64,000 nt of DNA from Flavobacteriaceae bacterium (GTDB taxonomy: Bacteria; Bacteroidota; Bacteroidia; Flavobacteriales; Flavobacteriaceae), in assembly GCA_021648755.1 (NCBI GenBank), contig JAKISG010000010.1:7017-71016 (forward strand). Direction: 5' to 3'. Within the stretch, counting starts at the first letter, position 1; each line of letters starts with the position of its first letter. The notes beneath the pieces are model-generated. The model was not told the DNA's origin. It made no database searches and saw nothing but the letters and a program-made list of their open reading frames with translations. Both the position numbers and the translations under genes were made by a program. Shown here one piece after another: positions 66-37,906 of this stretch.

Positions 66-2222
66 ATGTCAAAAAACCAAAGACAATTATCTAAAACATT
101 AGCCTTACAACACGACCAATCTGACTGTGGTGTTGCCTGTTTATTATCCATAATAAAATATTACAAAGGTAATAACTCATTAGAAACATTACGAGAAATA
201 AGTGGTACAACAAGGCAAGGGACTACTTTGTTGGGTTTATACCAAGCCGCCAACAGTTTAGGTTTTGAAGCAAGTGGTAATGAAGCAGATATACAAGCAT
301 TAATAGACCATAAAGAACCTTTAATATTACATGCAGTTATTGAGGAGCGTTTGCAACATTATCTAGTTTGCTATGGTTTTGAAAATAATAAATTTATAAT
401 TGGTGATCCTTCAAAAGGTATAACAACTTACACTAAAGAAGAGTTAGAAAAAATTTGGAAATCAAAAACCTGTTTAACACTTACACCAAATGCAAACTTT
501 ATAAAAGCCACGGAAACAAAAAAATCTAAAAAAGAATGGTTTTTAAAATTGCTTAAAAAAGATTACCAATTATTAGGTATTAGTATGGCTTTTGGTTTGG
601 TGGTTGCTTTATTAGGTATGGCAATGGCAATTTTTTCACAAAAACTAATAGATGATATTTTGCCGTCTCATGATACTAAAAAATTAATAACAGGTATTGG
701 TTTGTTAGCATTTATATTGTTGGTTAGGGTCGCTTTCACCACGTTGCGCGAGTTCTTTCTAATAAAACAATCTAAAGACTTTAATAATAGAATAATTGAT
801 ACTTTTTATAGTTCGTTATTACACTTACCAAAACCTTTTTTTGATACTCGTAAAATAGGCGAACTAGTTGCACGTTTAAATGATACAAACCGAGTACAAC
901 GTGTTATAAAACTAATAGCAAGTAATTTTGTAATAGATATTTTGGTTACGTTAGTTTCTTTTGGTTTTTTGTTTTATTATTCTTGGGAAGTTGGCGTTAT
1001 TGCTTTGGTCAGTTTACCAATTTACTTTTTAATTATTTATCGTTTTAATAAACAAATTATAAATGCTCAAAAAGAAGTGATGCAAAGTTACGCCTTAAAC
1101 GAAAGTAATTATATTACATCTATGCAAGGTATTGCAACGATTAAGAATTTTAATAGACAAAATTTGTTTCAAAAAGTAAATCAACTTATTTATGGAAACT
1201 TTCAAAATAAAATTTTTAATTTAGGTAAAATAAACATTAAACTTGCTTTATTATCTGGTATTTCAGGTGTTTTATTTTTGATTGTTATTTTAGGCTATAC
1301 ATCTTATCTAGTTTATAATGAAACTATGACTTTAGGTATGTTAATAGCTGTGCTTGGTATTGTAGGTTCGTTGTTGCCAAGTATTACCAATTTAGCATTA
1401 ATTGCCATACCAATTAATGAGGCAAAAATAGCCTTTAATCGTATGTTTGAATTTGCAAGTATTAAAAAAGAAAACCAAGGAACTATAAAAATAATCAATT
1501 TTAAATCCCTAGAGATTAAAGACATGTCTTTTAGATTTGCGGGTAGAGGTCAGTTACTAAAAAATATAAATATTACCATTAATAAAGGCGAATTTATTGC
1601 AGTTGTTGGCGAAAGTGGAAGTGGTAAAAGCACTTTAGGACAAGTTTTACAACAATTTTATATGTTTGAAAATGGGACGATAACAGTTAATGATGAATTT
1701 GAATTAAAAGATATTTCAACATCACATTGGCGAGATTTGGTTGGTGTAATTCCACAAGAAATACATATTTTTTCTGGTAATGTTATCGATAATATTTTAT
1801 TAGGAGCAGAAGATAAACCTGAAAATGTAGTTAAATTTTGCCAAGAAAATGGTTTTGAAAAATTTATTGCACAATTACCACAAGGTTACGCAACTCTATT
1901 AGGTGAAGAGGGTATTAATTTATCTGGCGGACAAAAGCAAATAATAGCATTAGCAAGGGTTTTGTATAAAAAACCACAGTTTTTAATTTTAGATGAGGCA
2001 ACTTCTGCAATGGGTAGAAATACAGAAAAGTTTACCATGCAATTACTTAAAAATTTAAAACAAGATATTGCAGTATTGTTTATTTCGCATAGATTACACA
2101 CCTTAAAAAATATTGCAGACCGAATTTACGTGTTAGAAAACGGTGCTATTTCATCTACAGGAAATCATCAAAAGTTATTAGAAACATCAAATTTTTATAG
2201 TGAATTTTGGAAAGAATTATGA
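66..2222 (+). CDS. Peptidase C39 domain-containing ABC transporter (leader-peptide processing/bacteriocin exporter, LagD/CvaB/SunT-like)
   Basis: 718-aa ORF. N-terminal papain-like C39 motif QSDCGVACLLSI (catalytic Cys), multi-TM core, Walker A GESGSGKST, ABC signature LSGGQKQ, Walker B FLILDEATSA, H-loop SHRL. Confidence 0.9.
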   Translation: MSKNQRQLSKTLALQHDQSDCGVACLLSIIKYYKGNNSLETLREISGTTRQGTTLLGLYQAANSLGFEASGNEADIQALIDHKEPLILHAVIEERLQHYLVCYGFENNKFIIGDPSKGITTYTKEELEKIWKSKTCLTLTPNANFIKATETKKSKKEWFLKLLKKDYQLLGISMAFGLVVALLGMAMAIFSQKLIDDILPSHDTKKLITGIGLLAFILLVRVAFTTLREFFLIKQSKDFNNRIIDTFYSSLLHLPKPFFDTRKIGELVARLNDTNRVQRVIKLIASNFVIDILVTLVSFGFLFYYSWEVGVIALVSLPIYFLIIYRFNKQIINAQKEVMQSYALNESNYITSMQGIATIKNFNRQNLFQKVNQLIYGNFQNKIFNLGKINIKLALLSGISGVLFLIVILGYTSYLVYNETMTLGMLIAVLGIVGSLLPSITNLALIAIPINEAKIAFNRMFEFASIKKENQGTIKIINFKSLEIKDMSFRFAGRGQLLKNINITINKGEFIAVVGESGSGKSTLGQVLQQFYMFENGTITVNDEFELKDISTSHWRDLVGVIPQEIHIFSGNVIDNILLGAEDKPENVVKFCQENGFEKFIAQLPQGYATLLGEEGINLSGGQKQIIALARVLYKKPQFLILDEATSAMGRNTEKFTMQLLKNLKQDIAVLFISHRLHTLKNIADRIYVLENGAISSTGNHQKLLETSNFYSEFWKEL

Positions 2223-13365: not shown

Positions 13366-14262
13366 CTACTTTCGTGGGTGAAACTGTTCTATTACTTCCT
13401 TTAAAAAACTACGATCAACATGCATGTAAATTTCTGTAGTTGTAATGCTTTGATGACCTAACATTTGTTGTATGGCACGTAAATCTGCACCGTTTTCTAA
13501 CAAATGAGTTGCAAAAGAATGTCTAAAAGTATGCGGACTTACTTTTTTTTCTATTCCAGCCTTTATAACTAAATCTTTAATTATCATAAAAATCATATTT
13601 CTAGATAGTTGTTTTCCTCGTCGATTTAAAAATAAAGTATCTTCAAATTCTTTTACAGGGTTTATATGATTTCTAATTTCGGATATATATAATAAAATAT
13701 ACTTTTGACTTTGTAAATTAATAGGCACAAATCGTTGTTTGTTTCCTTTACCAATGACTCTAATAAACCCTTCTTCAAAGAATAAATCAGAAAGCTGTAA
13801 GGTAATTAACTCAGTTACACGTAAACCACAACTATATAATATTTCTAAAATAGTGCGATTTCTTTCTCCTTGTGAATGGCTTAAATCTATTTGAGCAATG
13901 ATTAAATCTATTTCTTTTGTTGAGATAGTATCTGGTAATTTTCTGCCAATTCTAGGAGCCTCTATTAATTCTACAGGGTTTAATTTACGATAACCTTCAA
14001 AAATTAAATAATTAAAAAAACTTTTTAAACCAGAAATTAATCTTGATTGTGATCTTGGATTTAATTTTTTAGATGCAGTGTAAATAAACTGTTGTATAGT
14101 TTTTTCCATAATTTCAATAGGCGAAATTAGAATATCATTAACTTCCAAATAGTGAATTAGTTTATTTATATCACGCGCATAACTTTCTATAGAGTTTTGT
14201 GATAACCCTCTTTCAATTTTAAGGTATAAAGTATAGTCATTAATTGCATTATTCCATTTCAT
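13366..14262 (-). CDS. xerD: Tyrosine site-specific recombinase XerD
   Basis: 298 aa. Catalytic R...HxxR...Y pattern (GLRVTEL, HTFRHSFATHLLENGADLRAIQQMLGH, TEIYMHV). Confidence 0.88.
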   Translation of the reverse strand: MKWNNAINDYTLYLKIERGLSQNSIESYARDINKLIHYLEVNDILISPIEIMEKTIQQFIYTASKKLNPRSQSRLISGLKSFFNYLIFEGYRKLNPVELIEAPRIGRKLPDTISTKEIDLIIAQIDLSHSQGERNRTILEILYSCGLRVTELITLQLSDLFFEEGFIRVIGKGNKQRFVPINLQSQKYILLYISEIRNHINPVKEFEDTLFLNRRGKQLSRNMIFMIIKDLVIKAGIEKKVSPHTFRHSFATHLLENGADLRAIQQMLGHQSITTTEIYMHVDRSFLKEVIEQFHPRK

Positions 14263-26280: not shown

Positions 26281-26667
26281 TTAATTTAAAATTGCAGGAA
26301 TCACCAATTGAGATGTAGGAATATACACTTTAAACTTTTCGGTAGTTGTAAAATTAATCATATTGTAAAGACCAGACATAGAGCCAATAGGCGAAGTCAA
26401 ATAACAAAACGAACCGTATATATATTTTGCTTTTGGAGTTAAAATTGGTTTTTTACCAATAACTCCATCACCTTCAATTATTTCAATAGCGCTTAAAGAA
26501 TCAAAAATATACCACCTTCTACTAATCAATTGTACCGAATCATTACTTTGATTTTCAATAGTTATTTCATAATTAAACAGATAATTTAATCGATAATTTT
26601 GATAATGCGTACCTTTAAAATTGGTTTTTATCGAAATTTTAATTCCGTTTGTTATTTGCTGAATCAT
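26281..26667 (-). CDS. apaG: ApaG (DUF525) protein
   Basis: 128 aa with an ApaG-like pattern (YEITIENQSNDSVQLISRRWYIFDS...EGDGVIGKKP). Confidence 0.85.
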   Translation of the reverse strand: MIQQITNGIKISIKTNFKGTHYQNYRLNYLFNYEITIENQSNDSVQLISRRWYIFDSLSAIEIIEGDGVIGKKPILTPKAKYIYGSFCYLTSPIGSMSGLYNMINFTTTEKFKVYIPTSQLVIPAILN

Positions 26668-26938: not shown

Positions 26939-27403
26939 ATGAGTAAAAAAATATACGTATTAGACGGCGCATTATTAGAATGTAACATGGGTTATAAACC
27001 CGCAAAATTATTAGTAACCGAAAACAAAAAAGTAAAAATACAAGGCAAATTTAAAGCAACCGATGCCGACATACAAGTACCACAAACCTTTGGTAAATGT
27101 AAACTAAAACCAACAAATAGCGGTCATTTACCCTGCGTACCAGGCTTACAAAAATGGACTAATACTAGTACAAAAGTAACCTTAGGCAAAAGTAAAAAGT
27201 TTTTGTTCGACTGCTCACAAACGATGTGCTCTACAGGCGGTCTAGTAAAAATAAAAGATCACGGACAAATAGATAGCATAGGTAGTATGCTAGAACAATT
27301 TAAAGAAATTGCCATGCTCATACCAGGAGCCATGCCAGGAGCCACCAACATACCAAAAGTAGTAGAACAATATTGGATGGATGAAGAGAGCAAGAAAAAA
27401 TAG
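26939..27403 (+). CDS. DUF4280 (PAAR-like) domain protein, probable spike-tip/delivery head of the downstream toxin
   Basis: 154 aa with no signal peptide. Pattern GALLECNMG...PAKL.V...V.I.GK..AT..D...P..FG.C...P....PC.P....W......V..G......DCS..MCSTGGLVKIKDHGQ matches the conserved Cys/Gly layout of DUF4280. The stop follows an A6 run, and the downstream frame is already open (see findings). Confidence 0.8.
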   Translation: MSKKIYVLDGALLECNMGYKPAKLLVTENKKVKIQGKFKATDADIQVPQTFGKCKLKPTNSGHLPCVPGLQKWTNTSTKVTLGKSKKFLFDCSQTMCSTGGLVKIKDHGQIDSIGSMLEQFKEIAMLIPGAMPGATNIPKVVEQYWMDEESKKK

Positions 27404-27441
27404 AAGAAGAAGAAAATAATAAAAATGTAAAAATATTTGTA

Positions 27442-29688
27442 ATGACCGAAAATATTGATGCAGGAGAAACACTAACTATTGAAATTGAAGAAAAAGAAGG
27501 TCAAGAATTTAACAAAGGAGAAAAAAAATTAACCTATACAAGCACAGTAAAAGCAAACGGTTCAAGTACACTAGATATAGAGATAAATAAAGACTGGCAA
27601 GAAGCCACAAATAGAACACTTGTATTAAAAAGAATACACACAGCAGAAATGACCTTTGAAGTTCACGAAGAACTAAAAATAGTTGACCCCAACGAAAAAA
27701 AAGTACTAGACGTCTATCTAGCCGAAAAAAAGATAAAATATGTAGATGAAGAAGATGGCGAATACACATACACCTTTAAAAACGATAAAAAGGCAGTAAA
27801 TAACCACGAAAAAAATGTGCTTTCCTCAGAAATATTTAGTGTAGTAAAAAAAACATTAGAAAGTTTAAATCAAAAACCAGCAACTGAATTTATAACCGAG
27901 GCATTAAAAACCAATAAAGAAGCAGGTAAAATTAAAGAAAGTTACAAAAAAGGCGAAACACTCACCTTTAAAGTATATAAACTAGAAAGGAAAAAAGAAG
28001 AACACTACCAAAAAATGAGTAGTGTAATTGGCGCCTCTATGGGCAACCAAATATATATAATAGCCAAAACAAAAAATTTAGAAGGCAAAAAAGTAAAGAT
28101 AAAGTTACATGAGAAAGAAGACGAGTTAAAACTACTAAAAGACAAAGACGCTATTTTGCCCGTATTAGTTTACGCAAAAAAAGAAGACAAAACAACCGAT
28201 ACCCAAGCCAGCGATTGGATAGAAATAGACATTAAAAAAGAAAAAGGAAAAAAAGAAACCGATAATGTCATACTAAGCCAAGGAGAAGAAGAAATAGAAG
28301 TAGGCATAAAAAAAATACAACTACGCCCAAAAACCGATAAAATGGCAAGCAAAGACGAAGAAGCCAGTAAAAGTTTTGAAGGATGGGCAGAGAAGTTGTA
28401 TATACGAGAAGATGAAACCGAAGCAGGAAAAAAAGCAAAAAAAGCAAAAGAAGAAGAAAAAACAATAACCCTAAATTTTGATAAAGATGCAATTAAAGAA
28501 AGTTTCCCTGAAAAAATAACATGGTTAAAAAGCAGTGAGATAGGTAAAGAAGAAATATACACCATTACAAAATACCTTAAAGGCGAAACTGAAGTTGACA
28601 AGAATAATATACGTTGGTCATTATATATACAAAGCAAAAAAAAGAATTACACCATTATAGACACCAAAACTAAAACTGATCTATACACGTATGCCAAAAC
28701 GGAACTCATTGATGGCAAAAATCAACTAACCATAATATTCGACAAAGCCCTAAAAGGTAAAAAAGTACAAATAGAACCCTTTAGAGAAGAAGCACCAAAA
28801 TTAAACACAAAAAATGATTATGTAAGTACAACGCTTATTAAAGAAAAAGCCACCCCAAAAATAACCAAACTAGACACTACCAAACTATGGTTACAAACCG
28901 AGTGTGATGATTGTAAAGAAAAGGAAAAAAAGAAAGAATTTTTAAAAGAGAATTATTTTAAATTAAAAACGCCAGATACTATTCATATTTATAGTGATGG
29001 GAAGATTAGTAAAACACCTCTAACATTATTAAAAAACATAAGATATGTTTATGTTGCTAGTGATGGTGAAGAGCATGATTTGGGTAAATATAATTTAATA
29101 GAAGCTCAAAAATGGAATTATGGTTCTTCAAGATATCATAGTGGATGGAAAAAAATCGTTACTATTGATAATAAAGGAAATGAAAAAGAAAAATATTTTG
29201 AATATGCTAAAGGAAAAGTTAAGTTAGTTAAATTCAAACTTCCTTTATCATATAATTATAATAATGTAAATATTAAATTAAAAGATAATTCAACAAGAGA
29301 ATACATAAATCCAGAAGCTTTTGCCTGTCTTATAGGAGCATTGGCAGAAGTTGGTTATGATGATATTACTTTAAACGGATTTACATCTAAAGACGGTACA
29401 GGAGCACCAAGTGTAACTCATTTTAATGGAATTGCAGGAGATTTTCGATATTTAAGAAAAGATAAAAAAATAGCCTCTCTCCATATTAATACAAGTCCAA
29501 ATCAACTTGATGTTGAACGACAAGAAAAGTTTATTGATGCTCTAGTAAAATTTGGCTGGAAAAATTTTTATAGTTATGATACAAAAATTGACAAGAAAGA
29601 TTTTATACTTAAAAAATCTACTCACCTTGCTAACCACCATCATCATCTACATTTAAGATATGAACAATTTAAACCAAATTATAAATAA
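27442..29688 (+). CDS. Polymorphic toxin: Lys/Glu-rich repeat-module N-region, conserved junction segment, and C-terminal LAS/M15-like zinc peptidase module (CT1)
   Basis: 748 aa with no signal peptide and no T9SS CTD. C-terminal motifs PSVTHFNGIAGD (H at 29419, D at 29440; SxHxxGxAxD type) and HLH (29644-29652). The frame is open upstream to 27385, so the true N-terminus is probably upstream or fused to the DUF4280 gene. Confidence 0.75.
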   Translation: MTENIDAGETLTIEIEEKEGQEFNKGEKKLTYTSTVKANGSSTLDIEINKDWQEATNRTLVLKRIHTAEMTFEVHEELKIVDPNEKKVLDVYLAEKKIKYVDEEDGEYTYTFKNDKKAVNNHEKNVLSSEIFSVVKKTLESLNQKPATEFITEALKTNKEAGKIKESYKKGETLTFKVYKLERKKEEHYQKMSSVIGASMGNQIYIIAKTKNLEGKKVKIKLHEKEDELKLLKDKDAILPVLVYAKKEDKTTDTQASDWIEIDIKKEKGKKETDNVILSQGEEEIEVGIKKIQLRPKTDKMASKDEEASKSFEGWAEKLYIREDETEAGKKAKKAKEEEKTITLNFDKDAIKESFPEKITWLKSSEIGKEEIYTITKYLKGETEVDKNNIRWSLYIQSKKKNYTIIDTKTKTDLYTYAKTELIDGKNQLTIIFDKALKGKKVQIEPFREEAPKLNTKNDYVSTTLIKEKATPKITKLDTTKLWLQTECDDCKEKEKKKEFLKENYFKLKTPDTIHIYSDGKISKTPLTLLKNIRYVYVASDGEEHDLGKYNLIEAQKWNYGSSRYHSGWKKIVTIDNKGNEKEKYFEYAKGKVKLVKFKLPLSYNYNNVNIKLKDNSTREYINPEAFACLIGALAEVGYDDITLNGFTSKDGTGAPSVTHFNGIAGDFRYLRKDKKIASLHINTSPNQLDVERQEKFIDALVKFGWKNFYSYDTKIDKKDFILKKSTHLANHHHHLHLRYEQFKPNYK
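28769..29059 (+). repeat. Junction repeat, copy 1 (inside the large toxin gene)
   Basis: 28801-29006 matches 30422-30627 at 205/206 nt by eye. The lead-in AAATAGAACC(C)TT(T)A is shared by all three copies. 28843-28894 and about 28912-29059 also match copy 3. Confidence 0.9.
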
Positions 29689-29695
29689 TGAAAAT

Positions 29696-30397
29696 ATGAA
29701 AAAAATAATTATATTGATATTTTTTGGGTATTTGTTTTTTTGTTGCAAACAAAAAGATAATTTAACATTAAATCAATCAAACATTAGTAAACAAAAAGAT
29801 AGTACAAAAGAATATTCTTTCTCACAAAAAAAAGATTCAACTATTTTTATCCCAGAGTTTGCTCTAATAAAACCAAAATACCAATCTAATTTTCTAAAAT
29901 TGGATAAAAAAAATATTGAAAAATATCAAAAAATTCAATTAAAAATAGGTAACTTTTCGGATTTTTTTTTAGGAAATACTGATGAAAATGATATTATTGG
30001 TCACCCTGATATAGATTATGATGGATTTACTTTATGGCATACTACATTTAAAGATAGAATTGAAATAGCTTTTTTTGCAAAAAAAATATTAAAATATTAT
30101 GGTTTTTTTATTGAGAAAGATAAATTATTATTAGTTACTGAAACGACTAGAAGAAATAATATTAAAACAACAGACTCTATATTTTTTGAAAACAATCATA
30201 TTCTTTTATGGAAAAATTCATCAAACAAATTTGTAACTAACCCTAATATAATAAAAGGAAAAGAAAACTATATACTAAGATTGATTAAAGAGATGAAAGA
30301 AATAGAAAATAATGAAATAGGATATATTGAAGAATACAACTACACAAAAGACTCATTATCATCTTTTGTAATAGCGAACTTAAAAAAGCATAAATAG
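29696..30397 (+). CDS. Lipoprotein, candidate cognate immunity protein for CT1
   Basis: MKKIIILIFFGYLFFCCKQ is a lipoprotein-type signal with Cys. It starts 7 nt after the toxin stop. I recognise no family. ATG 29696 preferred over 29660, which overlaps the toxin gene. Confidence 0.65.
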   Translation: MKKIIILIFFGYLFFCCKQKDNLTLNQSNISKQKDSTKEYSFSQKKDSTIFIPEFALIKPKYQSNFLKLDKKNIEKYQKIQLKIGNFSDFFLGNTDENDIIGHPDIDYDGFTLWHTTFKDRIEIAFFAKKILKYYGFFIEKDKLLLVTETTRRNNIKTTDSIFFENNHILLWKNSSNKFVTNPNIIKGKENYILRLIKEMKEIENNEIGYIEEYNYTKDSLSSFVIANLKKHK

Positions 30398-30627
30398 AAC
30401 CTTAGAGAGGTGAACCAGTTATTAAACACAAAAAATGATTATGTAAGTACAACGCTTATTAAAGAAAAAGCCACCCCAAAAATAACCAAACTAGACACTA
30501 CCAAACTATGGTTACAAACCGAGTGTGATGATTGTAAAGAAAACGAAAAAAAGAAAGAATTTTTAAAAGAGAATTATTTTAAATTAAAAACGCCAGATAC
30601 TATTCATATTTATAGTGATGGGAAGAT
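30392..30627 (+). repeat. Junction repeat, copy 2 (5' end of the orphan toxin ORF)
   Basis: See copy 1. The single mismatch is AAG/AAC, giving EKEKKK versus ENEKKK. Confidence 0.9.
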
Positions 30628-31393
30628 GGATAAAGTGAATTTTAAAAATCTTCTTTTTGGAAAAAAATTAAAATATATTTATGTAGATAAGGATGGTAAT
30701 CACCATAAGGTTTGTGAATGTGAACTATATGAAACTTGGAAAATGGGTAGTGGAAAATCAGATAGTACACTTATTCCTTCTGCCACAGAAAAGGCGAGTG
30801 CAACAGTAATAGATTATGTTGCAATGGGAGTATCTGGAGTAGATGCTCATAAGACTTGGGTACTTACAAATAATGACGTATATACCAAAGGAGAATTAAT
30901 AGCTGGATACACACACCTATATTATAAAGCTTCAACTGAAAAAGTAGTTATGGTTACTATACCTAGTAATCTTAATTATAGAAAGAATGATTTAAATATA
31001 AAATTTGAATTTAAAAGAACATTAAGAAAATTTAGTAGTCCTGAAATTTTTGCAGCTTTCATTGGAGTTCTCGCAGAATGCTCATATGTTGATGTAGTTT
31101 CTGAAGGCTCATCATATAGAAACGGAAGTAGTTACCCAAGTAAAACACATAATAATGGATTTGCAATAGATACTTGGTATTTTGGGCCAAACAGAAACTC
31201 AACAACAGGTAAAGTAAACTCATTAGATTTAACAAAACAACAAGACTTTATGGATGCATTTAAAAAATTTGGTTTTGATGATAGAATAAAAGGGTCAGAT
31301 AATAAATGTTCAAACTTAACGAACTATACTTTAAAAAATGGAAATCATAATGGGCACTTACATTGCGGCAAGTTAAATCCAAATTATAAATAA
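30410..31393 (+). CDS. Orphan toxin cassette: junction segment plus diverged LAS/M15-like peptidase module (CT2), lacking the N-terminal delivery region
   Basis: 327 aa from a GTG start 12 nt after the previous stop. The frame opens only after TAG 30395-30397. Motifs PSKTHNNGFAID (H 31148, D 31169) and HLH (31355-31363). It has the same C-terminal tail PNYK as CT1. Confidence 0.65.
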   Translation: MNQLLNTKNDYVSTTLIKEKATPKITKLDTTKLWLQTECDDCKENEKKKEFLKENYFKLKTPDTIHIYSDGKMDKVNFKNLLFGKKLKYIYVDKDGNHHKVCECELYETWKMGSGKSDSTLIPSATEKASATVIDYVAMGVSGVDAHKTWVLTNNDVYTKGELIAGYTHLYYKASTEKVVMVTIPSNLNYRKNDLNIKFEFKRTLRKFSSPEIFAAFIGVLAECSYVDVVSEGSSYRNGSSYPSKTHNNGFAIDTWYFGPNRNSTTGKVNSLDLTKQQDFMDAFKKFGFDDRIKGSDNKCSNLTNYTLKNGNHNGHLHCGKLNPNYK

Positions 31394-31401
31394 TTAAAAT
31401 T

Positions 31402-32400
31402 ATGTTAAAACTTATTTCTATTATACTAATTATTTTCACCTCTTGTAAGGAGATAGATAATATGCATTCAAAAAAAAATGAATTAAATAATCATATTGCA
31501 AATAAAGATACAAATATTTCTTATGAAAAAACAGCATTCTTTGATACAATAAAACAATATCCTTTGCCTTTTGGTAAAAAATTAGTACTAACAAATTTTC
31601 CAGAAAAATGGGAATACCCTTCTATTTATGAAGAGGTAGATGACAGGAGAAAAGGAAAATATGAAATTATACTAAATTCTTTAAACTCATATTTAGATAA
31701 ATTTATGTATAAAACTTCTTTAAAAATCAATAAAGAAAAATACTCTTATAATTATTTTATAAATTCTGCAAATAAATATTTTAACTATTATGAAGATTAT
31801 ACTTTCTATAATGTTAGATGGAAAATTGAAGAAGTAAAAAATGTTTCTATTGGAAAAATTAAGAATTTTGTGAAAAATATAGAAGTCATTATTACTAAGA
31901 ACTCAACAAGTTCTAACTATTTAAACATTGTTACAATAGATTCGAAAAGAAACATTATTGATGGTATTAACATTGGGTATTCAGAGAATGTTTTTGAATT
32001 CTCACATTCAGGAAAATATTACTTCATTGATAGAAATAGAATTATTCATCTAAAATCTTTTCTTTCGCTTGAAACGGAAACTCGATTTCAGCGTTATGAA
32101 AAATATCAAATCCTTTCAACAGGAAAAATAGTACGTTATTTTAATAAAAATTCAGGTCAATTCAGTAGTAAAGAAGAAAGCGGAAATATACAAAATCATA
32201 CAAAAGAAGGCATATGGATAGAAACTAAACCCAATATGTATGTTGAAGAACATACCTATGTTAAAGCCAAATACAAAAAAGGACTCCCTTTTGGTATTTG
32301 GAGATACTATAATTTAATAAATAACACTAAAAAAGGAGACAAACTTCTAATGACAGAAGAATACGATAAAAATGGTAAATTATTAAAAAAAATGTTTTAA
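31402..32400 (+). CDS. Lipoprotein, candidate immunity protein for CT2 (C-terminal MORN/YwqK-like repeats)
   Basis: MLKLISIILIIFTSCKE lipobox. Starts 8 nt after the CT2 stop. Unrelated to the first lipoprotein. The C-terminus EGIWIE...YKKGLPFGIWRYYN...EEYDKNGKLL resembles MORN-variant repeats of YwqK-type immunity proteins (tentative). Confidence 0.6.
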   Translation: MLKLISIILIIFTSCKEIDNMHSKKNELNNHIANKDTNISYEKTAFFDTIKQYPLPFGKKLVLTNFPEKWEYPSIYEEVDDRRKGKYEIILNSLNSYLDKFMYKTSLKINKEKYSYNYFINSANKYFNYYEDYTFYNVRWKIEEVKNVSIGKIKNFVKNIEVIITKNSTSSNYLNIVTIDSKRNIIDGINIGYSENVFEFSHSGKYYFIDRNRIIHLKSFLSLETETRFQRYEKYQILSTGKIVRYFNKNSGQFSSKEESGNIQNHTKEGIWIETKPNMYVEEHTYVKAKYKKGLPFGIWRYYNLINNTKKGDKLLMTEEYDKNGKLLKKMF

Positions 32401-32407
32401 AATAATA

Positions 32408-32736
32408 AAAATAGAACCCTTTAAAAAATAAAAACCAGATATTGACAACAAAAAAGACTATGTAAGAACAAGTATCATAACAGAAAAAGCCACCCCAAAA
32501 ATAACCAAACTAGACACTACCAAACTATGGTTACCTGTAAAGAAAGCGAAAAAAAGAAAGAATTTTTAAAAGATAATTATTTTAATTTGAGAACGCCAGA
32601 TACTATTCATATTTATAGTGATGGGAAAATTAGTAAAACACCTCTAACATTATTAAAAAATATAAGATATGTTTATGTTGCTAATTTTGATAAAGATATT
32701 TACGCTTTTTATGCACCTAAAATCTACAAATGTTAA
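32408..32736 (+). pseudogene. Degenerate third junction/CT1-type cassette remnant
   Basis: It has the lead-in AAATAGAACCCTTTA and a 52-nt exact match to copy 1 (32483-32534). A 17-nt to 1-nt replacement at 32535 shifts the frame, giving a stop at 32567-32569. Homology to the CT1 5' part (ISKTPLTLLKNIRYVYVA) ends at 32683, and there is no peptidase module. The ORF-track ORF 32527-32736 starts at an out-of-frame ATG. Confidence 0.65.
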
Positions 32737-32891: not shown

Positions 32892-33683
32892 ATGAACAAA
32901 AGATTTTTTTACATTATCCGAATGCAATTTTTAGGTTTCCGCTTTCATGGATGGCAAAAACAACAAGATGTAAAAACCTTACAAGGCCATGTAGAAAAAA
33001 CGTTAAAGTTTGTTTTAGGAAAAAGTAAAGCAAAAGTATTAGGTTCAGGAAGAACAGATGCTAAAGTATCTGCAAATGATTTTCCGATGGAGATGTTTGT
33101 CTACGAAGAAATAACAGATTTAAATCAATTTTTATTAGAATTTAATACCAATTTACCAAACGATATTAAGGCACTATCAATTATTGAAACTAATGAAGTA
33201 TTTAATATAATTAAGGACTCAAAAGTAAAAGAATATTTGTATTTTTTTTCATTTGGATCAAAAAATCACCCATTTGCTGCACCAATTCTAACCTGTTTTT
33301 ACGAAGATTTAAATTTAGAAGTTATGCAAAAAGGAGCAGCGCTTTTTCAAGGAAAACATTGGTTTAAACATTATTGTACTAAACCTACTGAGTTTGCAAA
33401 TTACAATCGTGAAATAACGCTTAGTGAAATTGTAGAAAACACGATTTATACGGCTAATTTTTTTCCAAAAAAATCGTATGTTTATCGAGTGAAAAGCAAA
33501 GGTTTTTTGCGTAATCAGATTCGTTTAATGATGGGTACACTTTTTAGATTAGGTCAAGGAGAAATAGCGTTAAGTTTTATAGAAAAATCATTAATAGAAC
33601 ATAATATTGATAGACCTTTACCGTTTGTTGCTCCAGCATCTGGTTTGATATTAAATAGCGTGGAATTTGAGTCATTAGGGTAA
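32892..33683 (+). CDS. truA: tRNA pseudouridine(38-40) synthase
   Basis: 263 aa with FHGWQKQ and GSGRTDAKVSA (catalytic Asp) motifs. Confidence 0.85.
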   Translation: MNKRFFYIIRMQFLGFRFHGWQKQQDVKTLQGHVEKTLKFVLGKSKAKVLGSGRTDAKVSANDFPMEMFVYEEITDLNQFLLEFNTNLPNDIKALSIIETNEVFNIIKDSKVKEYLYFFSFGSKNHPFAAPILTCFYEDLNLEVMQKGAALFQGKHWFKHYCTKPTEFANYNREITLSEIVENTIYTANFFPKKSYVYRVKSKGFLRNQIRLMMGTLFRLGQGEIALSFIEKSLIEHNIDRPLPFVAPASGLILNSVEFESLG

Positions 33684-36142: not shown

Positions 36143-37906
36143 TTATTCTACTTCATAAACTATAGGTAAAGTATATAGTATTGGTTCGCTTTTTCCATTT
36201 TTACGACCAGGCTTCATTTTTGGTAATAAACTCACTACTCTTAACGCTTCTTTCTCTAAAACTTTATGCTGACCTCTTATTTTAAGAACATTAACGTTAC
36301 CGTTTCTATCTATAATAAATGAAACATTTATTCTTTTTCGACCTTTATCTAAATCTAAATCTTGAGTTAGTCTAGTATTAAATTTATTACTAATAAATTT
36401 TGTTATTTTAGACATTAAACACTTCTTTTTAAACACTTCACTACCTTTCTTTTCACAACCTGGATAAATAGGAGATTTTTCAATAGTGGTTAAAGTCTCT
36501 ATTTTTGGTTTTTTGACAGGCTCTAACTTTTTAGGTTCTAATTTTTCTGGTTCATCAATAATTTTCGGTTCTTCTTTTTCTACTAAAGCATTTGTTAAAT
36601 CATTCTTACTATTTACGAAGTTGTCTAAATTATTGTTTGTAACTGTTTGTAGAGCCTTAACTGGCTTTTTATTTAATTTCTTTAGCGATGGTTTAACAGT
36701 TTTCTTTGATTTTGACTTTTCTTCTTTATCTTTATCTTTTGAATTATCACTTTCTAAAGTGATTTGATTTGCATTTGCAATTGAATCTATATAGCGTTGA
36801 CTTTGAAAATCTAATAATTGATTATTTGCATCTGCCAATTCAATAGAGTCTTTATACCTTCTGTTTTCATATTCGGACAATGTTTTATCCTTGTCATTTT
36901 TTTTTAATGAATTTTTATTCAGATAATTCCATGATAAAAAAATTATGGATAAAAAAATTAACCCTCCTAGCGCATACATTAAGTAATTAAGTTTTGAGTT
37001 TTGAGCTTTTTTCTCTTTTACTTCATGATCTCTCTTTTCTTTCTTTTTTTTCTTTTTTTTCTTTTTTACTATAGTTGGAATTACTTCGGAAACAATATTA
37101 TTAGTTGCTTTTTTTTTATCAACTTTTTCAATAACATCATTAATTTCAAAAAAAGTAGCATCATTGTCCTCTGTCTCTATATCTTTTAATTTGGTTTTAA
37201 CAATGTTAACGTTTTTAACGATATCTAATTTACGTTCAATAAGATTATCATCTTTATGGTCAAAATCATCTTCTAACTTAACTATTTCTTTTATTAAATC
37301 TTGTTTTTTATTATCAGTGATATTTTCGCTTATTAGAGAAATAACTTTACCCTTTTCTTCTTCTTCTTCTTCTTTTACATTTACATTTACATTTTTAACT
37401 TCTATGTTTTCCTTTTTGACATTTTCCTTTTTTTCTACTTTCTCTACATTTTCTTCTTCTTCTTCTTCTTCTTCTTCTTCATTTTTAACTTCTATGTTTT
37501 CCTTTTTGACATTTTCCTTTTTTTCTACCTTCTCTACATTTTCTTCTTCTTTTTCTTTCTCTTCTTCTTCATTTTTAACTTCTATATTTTCCTTTTTGAC
37601 ATTTTCCTTTTTTTCTACCTTCTCTACATTTTCTTCTTCTTTTTCTTTCTCTTCTTTTACATTTTTAACTTCTATGTTTTCCTTTTTGACATCCTCCCTT
37701 TTTTCTACCTTCTCTTCTTCTTTCTCTTCTTTTACATTTTTGACATTCTTTTTCGCTTCTGAATTTTCAGTTATTTGACTATCCGTAAATTTTTTTTTGT
37801 TCTTTATTTTTGCAGCCTCTAAGGCTGCTAATTTTTGTTCTAAATCAAATCTTATCTTTTCAATTTTTGATTTAGCGTCATCCATACTTTCATTGTTAGA
37901 ACTCAT
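36143..37906 (-). CDS. TonB C-terminal-domain protein with a long, repetitive Glu/Lys-rich cytoplasmic N-terminal region
   Basis: 587 aa. C-terminal ~90 aa are TonB-CTD-like (YPGCEKKGSE...VSFIIDRNGNV...ALRVVSLLPKMKPGRKNGK). A single mid-protein TM (LMYALGGLIFLSIIFLSW) is preceded by a poly-Lys run. The N-terminal ~300 aa are charged tandem repeats. Confidence 0.75.
   Translation of the reverse strand: MSSNNESMDDAKSKIEKIRFDLEQKLAALEAAKIKNKKKFTDSQITENSEAKKNVKNVKEEKEEEKVEKREDVKKENIEVKNVKEEKEKEEENVEKVEKKENVKKENIEVKNEEEEKEKEEENVEKVEKKENVKKENIEVKNEEEEEEEEEENVEKVEKKENVKKENIEVKNVNVNVKEEEEEEKGKVISLISENITDNKKQDLIKEIVKLEDDFDHKDDNLIERKLDIVKNVNIVKTKLKDIETEDNDATFFEINDVIEKVDKKKATNNIVSEVIPTIVKKKKKKKKKEKRDHEVKEKKAQNSKLNYLMYALGGLIFLSIIFLSWNYLNKNSLKKNDKDKTLSEYENRRYKDSIELADANNQLLDFQSQRYIDSIANANQITLESDNSKDKDKEEKSKSKKTVKPSLKKLNKKPVKALQTVTNNNLDNFVNSKNDLTNALVEKEEPKIIDEPEKLEPKKLEPVKKPKIETLTTIEKSPIYPGCEKKGSEVFKKKCLMSKITKFISNKFNTRLTQDLDLDKGRKRINVSFIIDRNGNVNVLKIRGQHKVLEKEALRVVSLLPKMKPGRKNGKSEPILYTLPIVYEVE
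37391..37750 (-). repeat. Four in-frame 90-bp tandem repeats within the TonB-like gene
   Basis: The unit ATTTTTAACTTCTATGTTTTCCTTTTTGACATTTTCC... recurs at 37391, 37481, 37571 and 37661. It encodes a ~30-aa unit ENVEKVEKKENVKKENIEVKNEEEEKEKEE. The first unit carries (TTC)10 at 37451-37480, which encodes Glu10. Confidence 0.92.

Follow-up and report, generated by a model that had tools for sequence, protein, structure and literature searches.

We conclude, with a probability of roughly 0.7, that the gene array lying between apaG and truA on a 75,545-bp contig (JAKISG010000010.1) of the metagenome-assembled genome (MAG) "Flavobacteriaceae bacterium" (GCA_021648755.1) belongs to a Bacteroidota-type (subtype iii) type VI secretion system (T6SS-iii) as an auxiliary effector module and was inserted at this site in the lineage. 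Array coordinates are given as positions in the window, by which we mean the whole 64,000-nt stretch analyzed, on its forward strand. The string of genes runs on the plus strand and consists of an open reading frame (ORF) for a DUF4280 PAAR-like domain, a 748-aa effector ending in a C-terminal toxin module (CT1), a lipoprotein gene, an orphan cassette with a second toxin module (CT2), a second lipoprotein gene, and a degraded remnant (Table 1). It is likely that this array is, or very recently was, a T6SS-iii effector module deployed via an apparatus encoded elsewhere.

In the mechanism that we propose, the DUF4280 PAAR-like protein of related loci would cap the VgrG spike, and its variable C-terminal tail, with the help of a 295-aa adaptor-like protein, would hold a beta-rich carrier whose last ~150 residues are the putative toxin. 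The toxin here is predicted to be a LAS/M15-type zinc peptidase that would be injected into the periplasm of a neighbor and cut peptidoglycan there; the producer would be shielded, in its own periplasm, by the lipoprotein whose gene directly follows. The junction, CT2, and second lipoprotein would form a silent spare, able to replace CT1 and its immunity gene by homologous recombination via the ~215-nt junction, and the third junction copy would be a decayed remnant. The copy in the window deviates from the canonical arrangement in that it has no local VgrG or adaptor, its DUF4280 core was probably cut from the tail by a 1-nt deletion in a run of A's, and this tail is now part of the effector ORF. 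If still used, such a module must rely on a T6SS-iii encoded elsewhere in the genome.

The genomic setting of related effectors points to this delivery route. The 748-aa protein has 29 homologs among the 5.8 billion clusters searched; the first ~60% is common to them, followed by M23 (PF01551), GH19 (PF00182), or unannotated C-termini, including several subtypes of the LAS type. The carrier was found in 13 loci in 13 of 185,579 species-representative genomes, all of them marine Flavobacteriaceae (Aquimarina, Sungkyunkwania, Lacinutrix, a Dokdonia MAG, and uncultured lineages). In every one of the 12 loci with an upstream flank, the order is VgrG, a Tle1-like gene with a DUF2931 gene, a 295-aa unannotated gene, a DUF4280 core with its tail, the carrier effector, and a small gene, and TssN, Hcp/TssD, TssB/TssC, and ClpV adjoin in seven of the 12. 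T6SS genes flank the pair of DUF4280 and carrier genes in Aquimarina, Olleya, Lacinutrix, Sungkyunkwania, and Dokdonia. Three papers (PMC13402684, PMC5014421, and PMC5349215) treat DUF4280 as an established PAAR-like tip of T6SS-ii and T6SS-iii, and the first of these cites Francisella IglG and Flavobacterium johnsoniae Fjoh_3275 as examples. The same source describes an adaptor, PAAR-like, effector, and immunity operon (Ate3-Pte3-Bte3-Bti3) shown by experiment in Bacteroides fragilis. The initial annotation of the window, made from the sequence alone, had left the delivery route open. The T6SS-iii effector modules of all 12 flanked relatives, the known role of DUF4280 as a tip, and a TssC assigned to the same genome by accession order now answer that question by analogy, suggesting T6SS delivery at this locus. 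In our reading, the array is T6SS-iii cargo displaced from its home cluster, and the paradox of the missing apparatus is thereby resolved. An AlphaFold2 model of the full-length effector is of low confidence (predicted local distance difference test score [pLDDT] 66) and matches only generic Ig-like beta-sandwiches, so we assign no specific fold to the carrier.

The DUF4280 relationship that was expected of the first ORF was borne out by a match to PF14107 (E=9e-19) that covers the full profile. The 154-aa product holds a complete PAAR-like domain, without the usual ~70-aa linker and tail, and five cysteines are kept (positions 15, 54, 66, 92, and 97). This core is 67-71% identical to the DUF4280 cores of Aquimarina and Olleya and aligns to a solved DUF4280-headed protein (PDB 9jg8_B, E=3.7e-10). 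In relatives, the DUF4280 protein is 223-226 aa long; residues 1-150 match the ORF in the window, and tblastn places residues 166-221 at window positions 27433-27597 in a different frame, where they make up the N-terminal ~52 residues of the 748-aa ORF. Stepping one base back after the Lys codons at 27392-27403 yields KKK-IEEEENNKNVKIFVMTENIDAG, and adding one base to the A-run gives a YWM..(22 aa)..TENxDAG spacing that matches exactly an intact DUF4280 protein (P0299, described below) and that of locus L005. Because the restored spacing is that of intact proteins, one base appears to be missing from the A-run. The tail of relatives ends in a stop codon, followed 4-5 nt later by the ATG of the effector; the window has neither, so the tail is in frame with the effector, and repair of the A-run in silico yields a single 917-aa protein. 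The initial annotation had the ORFs of this region right and overlooked both the frame break and the fusion of tail and effector.

The MAG itself appears to have at least part of the apparatus. A TssC (P0289, PF17541) deposited as "MAG: ... [Flavobacteriaceae bacterium]" has the accession MCF6349785.1, which lies 584 accessions before MCF6350369.1, the product of L3J23_04990, about the 998th locus. The proteins of the window (MCF6350342 to MCF6350401) are numbered strictly in gene order. As accession order is gene order and the effector is approximately the 998th locus, a TssC numbered 584 lower falls within the block of the same genome, from which we strongly infer that the MAG encodes this TssC. 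The 120 matches listed for TssC are at least 80% identical. A second DUF4280 protein, P0299 (MCF6350743.1; 224 aa, intact, with tail and stop codon, on a 51,992-bp contig), stands 374 accessions after the effector in the window and is, by the same numbering, probably from the same MAG.

The predicted fold and motifs of CT1 and CT2 support their reading as LAS/M15-type metallopeptidase-like modules. Across 14 aligned CT cores, R22, P27, G35, G49, S60, H63, N65, G66, D70, Y73, A103, G108, H137, H140, and L141 are invariant and H142 is nearly so (numbering of alignment A1). The motifs are S-x-x-H-x-N-G-x-x-x-D and H-x-x-H-L-H; the R and, from these motifs, the H, D, H, H, and H are invariant in 56 distant members. 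An H-x6-D together with an H-x-H is the LAS arrangement of the M15, M74, and hedgehog families. The AlphaFold2 model of CT1 (pLDDT 76; predicted template modeling score 0.75) was matched by Foldseek in the PDB to MepA, the RB49 L-alanoyl-D-glutamate peptidase, VldE, the N-domains of sonic, Indian, and desert hedgehog, and LdcB (best E=0.012, template modeling score [TM] 0.55). Among viral structures, the top match was a phage cell-wall hydrolase (E=2e-3, TM 0.52, root mean square deviation 3.3), and other top matches were "Peptidase M15A, C-terminal" proteins, an L-Ala-D-Glu peptidase, and endolysins. The peptidase assignment made initially holds for the motifs, has marginal fold matches on its side, and fails for membership in sequence profiles.

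The toxin family, which had also been left open, can now be placed as an unannotated LAS-type family of at least 574 representative clusters, counted at 50% identity in an exhaustive HMMER search (493 at E<=1e-10). Nearly always it sits at the very C-terminus, and the proteins that bear it range from 99 to about 1,400 aa; P0062 (1567 aa) is the sole member in which the domain is internal (residues 726-854). Three of 56 long members are DUF4280-headed (P0076, P0079, and P0133). This is the behavior of a widely shuffled toxin module, and the family has no Pfam model. Based on the fold class, the sister toxin domains (M23 and GH19), and the lipoprotein immunity candidates, the substrate is probably peptidoglycan. 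Among the polymorphic toxin domains cataloged in 2012 are NlpC/P60, L,D-peptidase, and glycohydrolase toxins; the terms searched in that catalogue returned no DD-peptidase or LAS-type domain. Single proteins among the 56 long members bear VanY, Amidase_3, LysM, or SH3_3 domains; such proteins may be relatives of the toxin domain that act as cell-wall enzymes of the housekeeping type. The sole plasmid matches are in Bernardetia spp. (NZ_CP147013.1:41605-42126 and NZ_CP147019.1:37957-38586), in the CT region alone and at 31-32% identity, and indicate that plasmids of Cytophagales spread the LAS-type toxin domain too.

From genome to genome, a given toxin type is followed by the same type of lipoprotein. 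Two proteins from two metagenomes, P0002 and P0004, are nearly identical over their N-terminal ~290 residues; P0002 ends in a CT1-type and P0004 in a CT2-type module. The gene after P0002 (locus L006) is 59% identical to lipoprotein 1, and the gene after P0004 (L007) is 55% identical to lipoprotein 2. Similarly, behind a CT1-type orphan in Lacinutrix (L020; 68% identity) stands a gene with a 44% match to lipoprotein 1, and matches to lipoprotein 2 (27-49%) follow CT2-type modules in L012, L013, L017, L020, L022, and L001. The type that is an orphan in the window is the resident toxin of the full-length P0004. This pattern suggests that the lipoproteins act as immunity proteins and that toxins are switched by cassette recombination. 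Extra copies of the junction, with or without toxin and immunity genes, occur in L010, L011, L017, L020, L022, L001, and L004; their presence in these seven other loci implies that orphan arrays are regular in this effector family. In a side observation, the gene 3' of the CT2 effector and its immunity gene in L007 (3250-3816) is 100% identical over 36 aa to a fragment 5' of the CT1 effector in L006 (2-193). These short contigs of different metagenomes may represent one locus with two tandem full-length paralogous effectors.

The junction itself is a family-specific ...LWLQTxCD...TIHIYxDGK segment. Copies 28800-29013 and 30421-30634 are 98% identical (214 nt), and 28800-29013 aligns ungapped to 32424-32637 at 64% identity. 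A three-way DNA alignment shows that homology sets in immediately past the stop codon that ends the gene before (AAATAGAACC...). Over ~215 nt, copies 1 and 2 are near-identical, after which they diverge abruptly; the 98% identity suggests recent conversion and not long decay. CT1 and CT2 are 43% identical overall, far less outside the junction, as befits the diverged paralogs proposed initially. The third copy has lost 16 nt between 32534 and 32535, ends ~70 nt into CT1-type sequence, and contains a short ORF that runs to 32736. The first lipoprotein has the N-terminus MKKIIILIFFGYLFFCC, with a short hydrophobic stretch to the Cys of a lipobox-like LFFC, and the second has a short hydrophobic N-terminus and the lipobox FTSC. 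The central proposal of the initial annotation, a polymorphic toxin/immunity array with orphan cassettes, holds and is supported by the covariation of toxins and lipoproteins, the 98% junction repeat, and the varied toxins on one carrier; its junction repeats and degraded third copy were found as described.

Several observations weigh against an active T6SS-iii module. No tblastn match to VgrG, TssD (Hcp), TssN, TssB/C, ClpV, Tle1, DUF2931, or the adaptor was obtained in the 64 kb, in line with the lack of T6SS genes noted initially, and the gene 5' of DUF4280 is apaG and not an adaptor gene. The assignment of TssC to the same genome rests on accession numbering, and TssC is the sole apparatus gene seen. 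When the 295-aa adaptor of the closest relative was used as the query, none of the 36 matches was L3J23-tagged. For the toxin, the CT1 fold scores are individually marginal (E=2e-3 to 1e-2, TM 0.5-0.55), with match lists that are homogeneous and agree with the motifs. No Pfam or NCBIfam LAS family matched the CT modules at E<=1, and phmmer and profile searches against PDB sequences returned only noise, e.g., His-tags. The module may be inactive, given the break between DUF4280 core and tail and the absence of the usual effector start, and with VgrG and the adaptor missing locally it may be decaying.

The alternative that best survives these points is unlikely, if serious. It holds that the array is a decaying relic or immunity islet, a dead fragment of a T6SS effector module that was copied into the gap between apaG and truA without VgrG and adaptor, would no longer fire a toxin, and is kept, if at all, for lipoproteins that protect against the CT1- and CT2-type toxins of neighbors. 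Decay is suggested by the interrupted DUF4280 frame, by an effector that no longer has its own start, by the lack of VgrG and adaptor, and by the clearly degraded third junction copy, and T6SS loci are known to leave orphan immunity islets (e.g., PMC7400221 and PMC10470768). However, the 748-aa and 327-aa ORFs are long and uninterrupted, with all catalytic residues kept in both toxin modules, the 154-aa ORF retains the entire PAAR-like domain, and an ATG start is present for the fusion of tail and effector. The 98% identity of the junction copies points to recent homogenization. We favor the T6SS-iii effector module, and the array may still be functional, judging from its reading frames and motifs.

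The frame break invites a second alternative, in which it is a switch or an artefact and the product is one ~917-aa protein of PAAR-like core, tail, carrier, and toxin, that is, a specialized PAAR effector. Such a protein could arise if an A7 was misassembled as A6, by slippage, or by phase variation. With one added base in the A-run, the sequence would again be exactly colinear with intact DUF4280 proteins and have their spacing, the tail is already in frame with the effector, and long DUF4280-headed proteins with the same LAS-type toxin exist (the three named above). In spite of this, we regard it as very unlikely. For slippage to be efficient in transcription or translation, six A's are a short run, none of the 29 other members of the carrier family begins with or is fused to a tail, and no RNA structure beyond chance follows the A-run (z=-1.3). 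Programmed frameshifting at the A-run was rejected as unsupported, as no RNA structure follows.

Within the preferred reading of a T6SS-iii effector module, identity across loci is unevenly distributed. It is 67-93% in the DUF4280 core and 22-67% in the tail, and the carrier shows 29-59% over its first 120 residues and 55-71% beyond them. Compared with P0299, the DUF4280 of the window is 93-95% identical in the core and 37-42% in the tail, and the switch falls about ten residues before the frame break. This distribution suggests that the core serves the spike (VgrG), that the tail and the carrier N-terminus form a variable, effector-specific interface, and that the module in the window arose by recombination within the DUF4280 core. 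The variant with a split core and a fused tail likewise suggests that the C-terminal tail of DUF4280 is an effector-specific connector. A bolder possibility, which we consider quite unlikely, is that the locus is a natural re-partitioning of the T6SS-iii spike tip, in which the tail, which varies more than any other part of DUF4280, was moved to the effector when stop and start codons were lost and was split from the core at the A tract. If this were true and the module functional, the tail would be a docking element that can be joined in cis either to the PAAR-like core, as is canonical, or to the effector, as here. The gain of one base in the A-run would then create one long fusion, a possible phase-variable switch between "cargo" and "specialized" effectors. 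The break between 95% core and 42% tail identity would mark the core as a second recombination handle for units of tail, effector, and immunity gene.

Two side observations concern the DUF4280 proteins of relatives. In several of these, DUF4280 is extended; that of Olleya sp. Bg11-27 (L004:4231-6425) has 512 aa, with an extra C-terminal domain of ~290 aa, and is followed by a 219-aa gene. In addition, gaps of ~1.5 kb separate the DUF4280 tail from the carrier in L013 and L015-L019. The module of relatives thus seems to hold a specialized PAAR-like toxin besides the cargo effector. Separately, a full-length DUF4280 hidden Markov model (HMM) gave weak tail-region matches in the carrier of the 748-aa protein (P0001 residues 86-113, 184-235, 304-351, and 397-432; window ~27700-28740), as well as in P0076 and P0133. 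Either a series of tail-like beta modules may make up the carrier, or a Lys/Glu compositional bias may lie behind these matches.

A third alternative, export by another route (as a bacteriolysin secreted by Sec or the type IX secretion system [T9SS], on an extracellular contractile injection system [eCIS] or phage-tail-like particle, or by lysis), is hardly credible. In its favor, T9SS genes (porV/porU/gldJ) were read from translations in the window, and PAAR-like domains occur on eCIS too (PMC8651086). Against it, the toxin-bearing proteins have no signal peptide or T9SS C-terminal domain, with a LAS core that reaches the last residue, there were no PHROGs or phage matches, and all relatives adjoin T6SS-iii and not eCIS genes. 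The N-terminus of the 748-aa protein (MTENIDAGE...) is not hydrophobic, and no Pfam match to a T9SS C-terminal domain was found, in agreement with the initial reading. PHROGs, phage, and tblastn searches likewise detected no tail-like sheath, tube, or baseplate genes and no phage protein families in the window, and the absence of eCIS and phage-tail genes from the 64 kb noted initially stands.

The array combines features of several known systems. It resembles the B. fragilis Ate3-Pte3-Bte3-Bti3 and F. johnsoniae Fjoh_3275 regions in having a DUF4280 gene directly 5' of a cargo effector and immunity gene, and its relatives share with these operons an adaptor-like gene before DUF4280 and adjoining VgrG and T6SS-iii core genes. 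In contrast, the window has no adaptor or VgrG, its tail has moved to the effector, its surroundings are housekeeping genes, and its carrier and toxin are unrelated to Bte3. As in Rhs, CdiA, and MafB systems, a conserved N-terminal part is joined by a short junction to swappable C-terminal toxins, an immunity gene follows directly 3', and promoter-less orphan cassettes keep the junction as a recombination handle. The array differs from these in its own junction segment and in its carrier, a ~450-aa beta-rich protein of marine Flavobacteriaceae only; no YD/Rhs repeats, VENN, or PxxxxDPxGL were found and no Rhs, PT-VENN, or similar Pfam family matched its proteins, as had been reported initially. 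The toxin modules share with the LAS clan (M15 VanY, LdcB, and phage L-Ala-D-Glu peptidases, M74 MepA, M23 lysostaphin, and hedgehog N-domains) the metal-ligand motifs H-x6-D and H-x-H, the predicted fold of a small alpha/beta sandwich, and the top structural matches, and sister effectors on the same carrier bear a bona fide M23 LAS domain. They differ in having no profile membership in Pfam or NCBIfam LAS families and in forming a C-terminal toxin family of their own. Finally, the 917-aa protein obtained by repair of the A-run would resemble specialized PAAR effectors (e.g., DUF4280-DUF3289, PDB 9jg8), and DUF4280-headed proteins with the same toxin exist, whereas the head and toxin part are separate ORFs as sequenced and every other protein of the carrier family is cargo in its own right.

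New here are the carrier family, which our literature searches did not find described, the LAS-type toxin family with two lipoprotein immunity families, and the variant with a split core and fused tail. These leave the kind of system unchanged, that is, T6SS-iii PAAR-like cargo with known orphan-cassette logic. The carrier family is unannotated, is confined to marine Flavobacteriaceae, and routinely trails orphan toxin/immunity cassettes; the LAS-type toxin family is large, has no Pfam model, and comes with two cognate lipoprotein immunity families. These findings provide annotation and mechanistic leads on interbacterial competition in marine Bacteroidota.

The insertion was assigned to the lineage by comparison with two genomes (GCA_044240345.1 and GCA_036478895.1) whose TruA protein is in the same 90%-identity cluster as that of the window. 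Both have the order P5C dehydrogenase, TANGO2, apaG, a 145-aa Rrf2 regulator (L008:9478-9915 and L009:9478-9915), truA, and a 117-aa gene, with no toxin array. The window aligns to both relatives on either side (73-82% nucleotide identity) and not in between. As the relatives have no array between apaG and truA, the array is lineage-specific and not a core operon. No Rrf2 remnant was found in the window, so the insertion replaced the Rrf2 gene or followed its loss. Neither an integrase nor a tRNA marks the insertion site, as had been noted, and the window has no tRNA. Phage, eCIS, defense-system, and plasmid origins of the array were considered and rejected. A XerD-like tyrosine recombinase (13366-14262, minus strand; translation read only) is found 12.7 kb away from the array and resembles a housekeeping xerD more than an island integrase.

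The features of the array and its flanks are collected in Table 1. All proposed ORFs were recovered on the plus strand at their proposed coordinates, and the NCBI calls MCF6350368-372 agree with them; the flanking apaG and truA were likewise verified by Pfam and NCBI calls. GenBank calls the same genes in a row (MCF6350367 to MCF6350374), with L3J23_04990 to L3J23_05005 as hypothetical proteins.

Table 1. Features of the apaG-truA interval, in window positions
Feature	Position	Strand	Remarks
apaG	26281-26667	-	Left flank; Pfam DUF525/ApaG E=3.5e-27; syntenic with L008, 73% nucleotide identity
DUF4280 PAAR-like core ORF, 154 aa	26939-27403	+	PF14107 E=9e-19, residues 7-110
Frame break AAG AAA AAA TAG	27392-27403	+	A6 run at 27395-27400
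DUF4280-tail-like segment	27433-27597	+	tblastn; HMM match at P0001 residues 2-54; junction DNA of relatives
Main effector ORF, 748 aa	27442-29688	+	Tail, carrier, junction, pre-toxin region, and CT1, in order
Beta-rich carrier domain of 748-aa effector	~27613-28790	+
Recombination junction copy 1, in 748-aa effector	28800-29013	+
LAS-type toxin core CT1 (predicted), in 748-aa effector	29233-29685	+
Immunity candidate 1, 233-aa lipoprotein, CT1 partner	29696-30397	+	Like genes after CT1-type effector or orphan elsewhere
Orphan cassette ORF, 327 aa	30410-31393	+	Junction copy 30421-30634 and CT2 core 30962-31390; catalytic motifs intact
Immunity candidate 2, 332-aa lipoprotein, CT2 partner	31402-32400	+	Like genes after CT2-type modules elsewhere
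Degraded third junction copy	32410-32736	+	16-nt deletion; CT1-type start, ended after ~70 nt
truA	32892-33683	+	Right flank; Pfam PseudoU_synth_1; 82% nucleotide identity to L008

A scan for sigma-70 promoters and terminators gave counts at chance, with a model that excludes Bacteroidota promoters. The other ORFs of the window are housekeeping genes. Two of the more distant genes have features of their own. A 587-aa TonB_C protein (36143-37906, minus strand) contains long Glu/Lys-rich repeats (...EKVEKKENVKKENIEVKN...), with strongly negative GC and AT skew. At 66-2222 (plus strand) is a peptidase-domain (C39-like) ABC transporter, so named by NCBI (MCF6350342.1), of the bacteriocin-exporter type.

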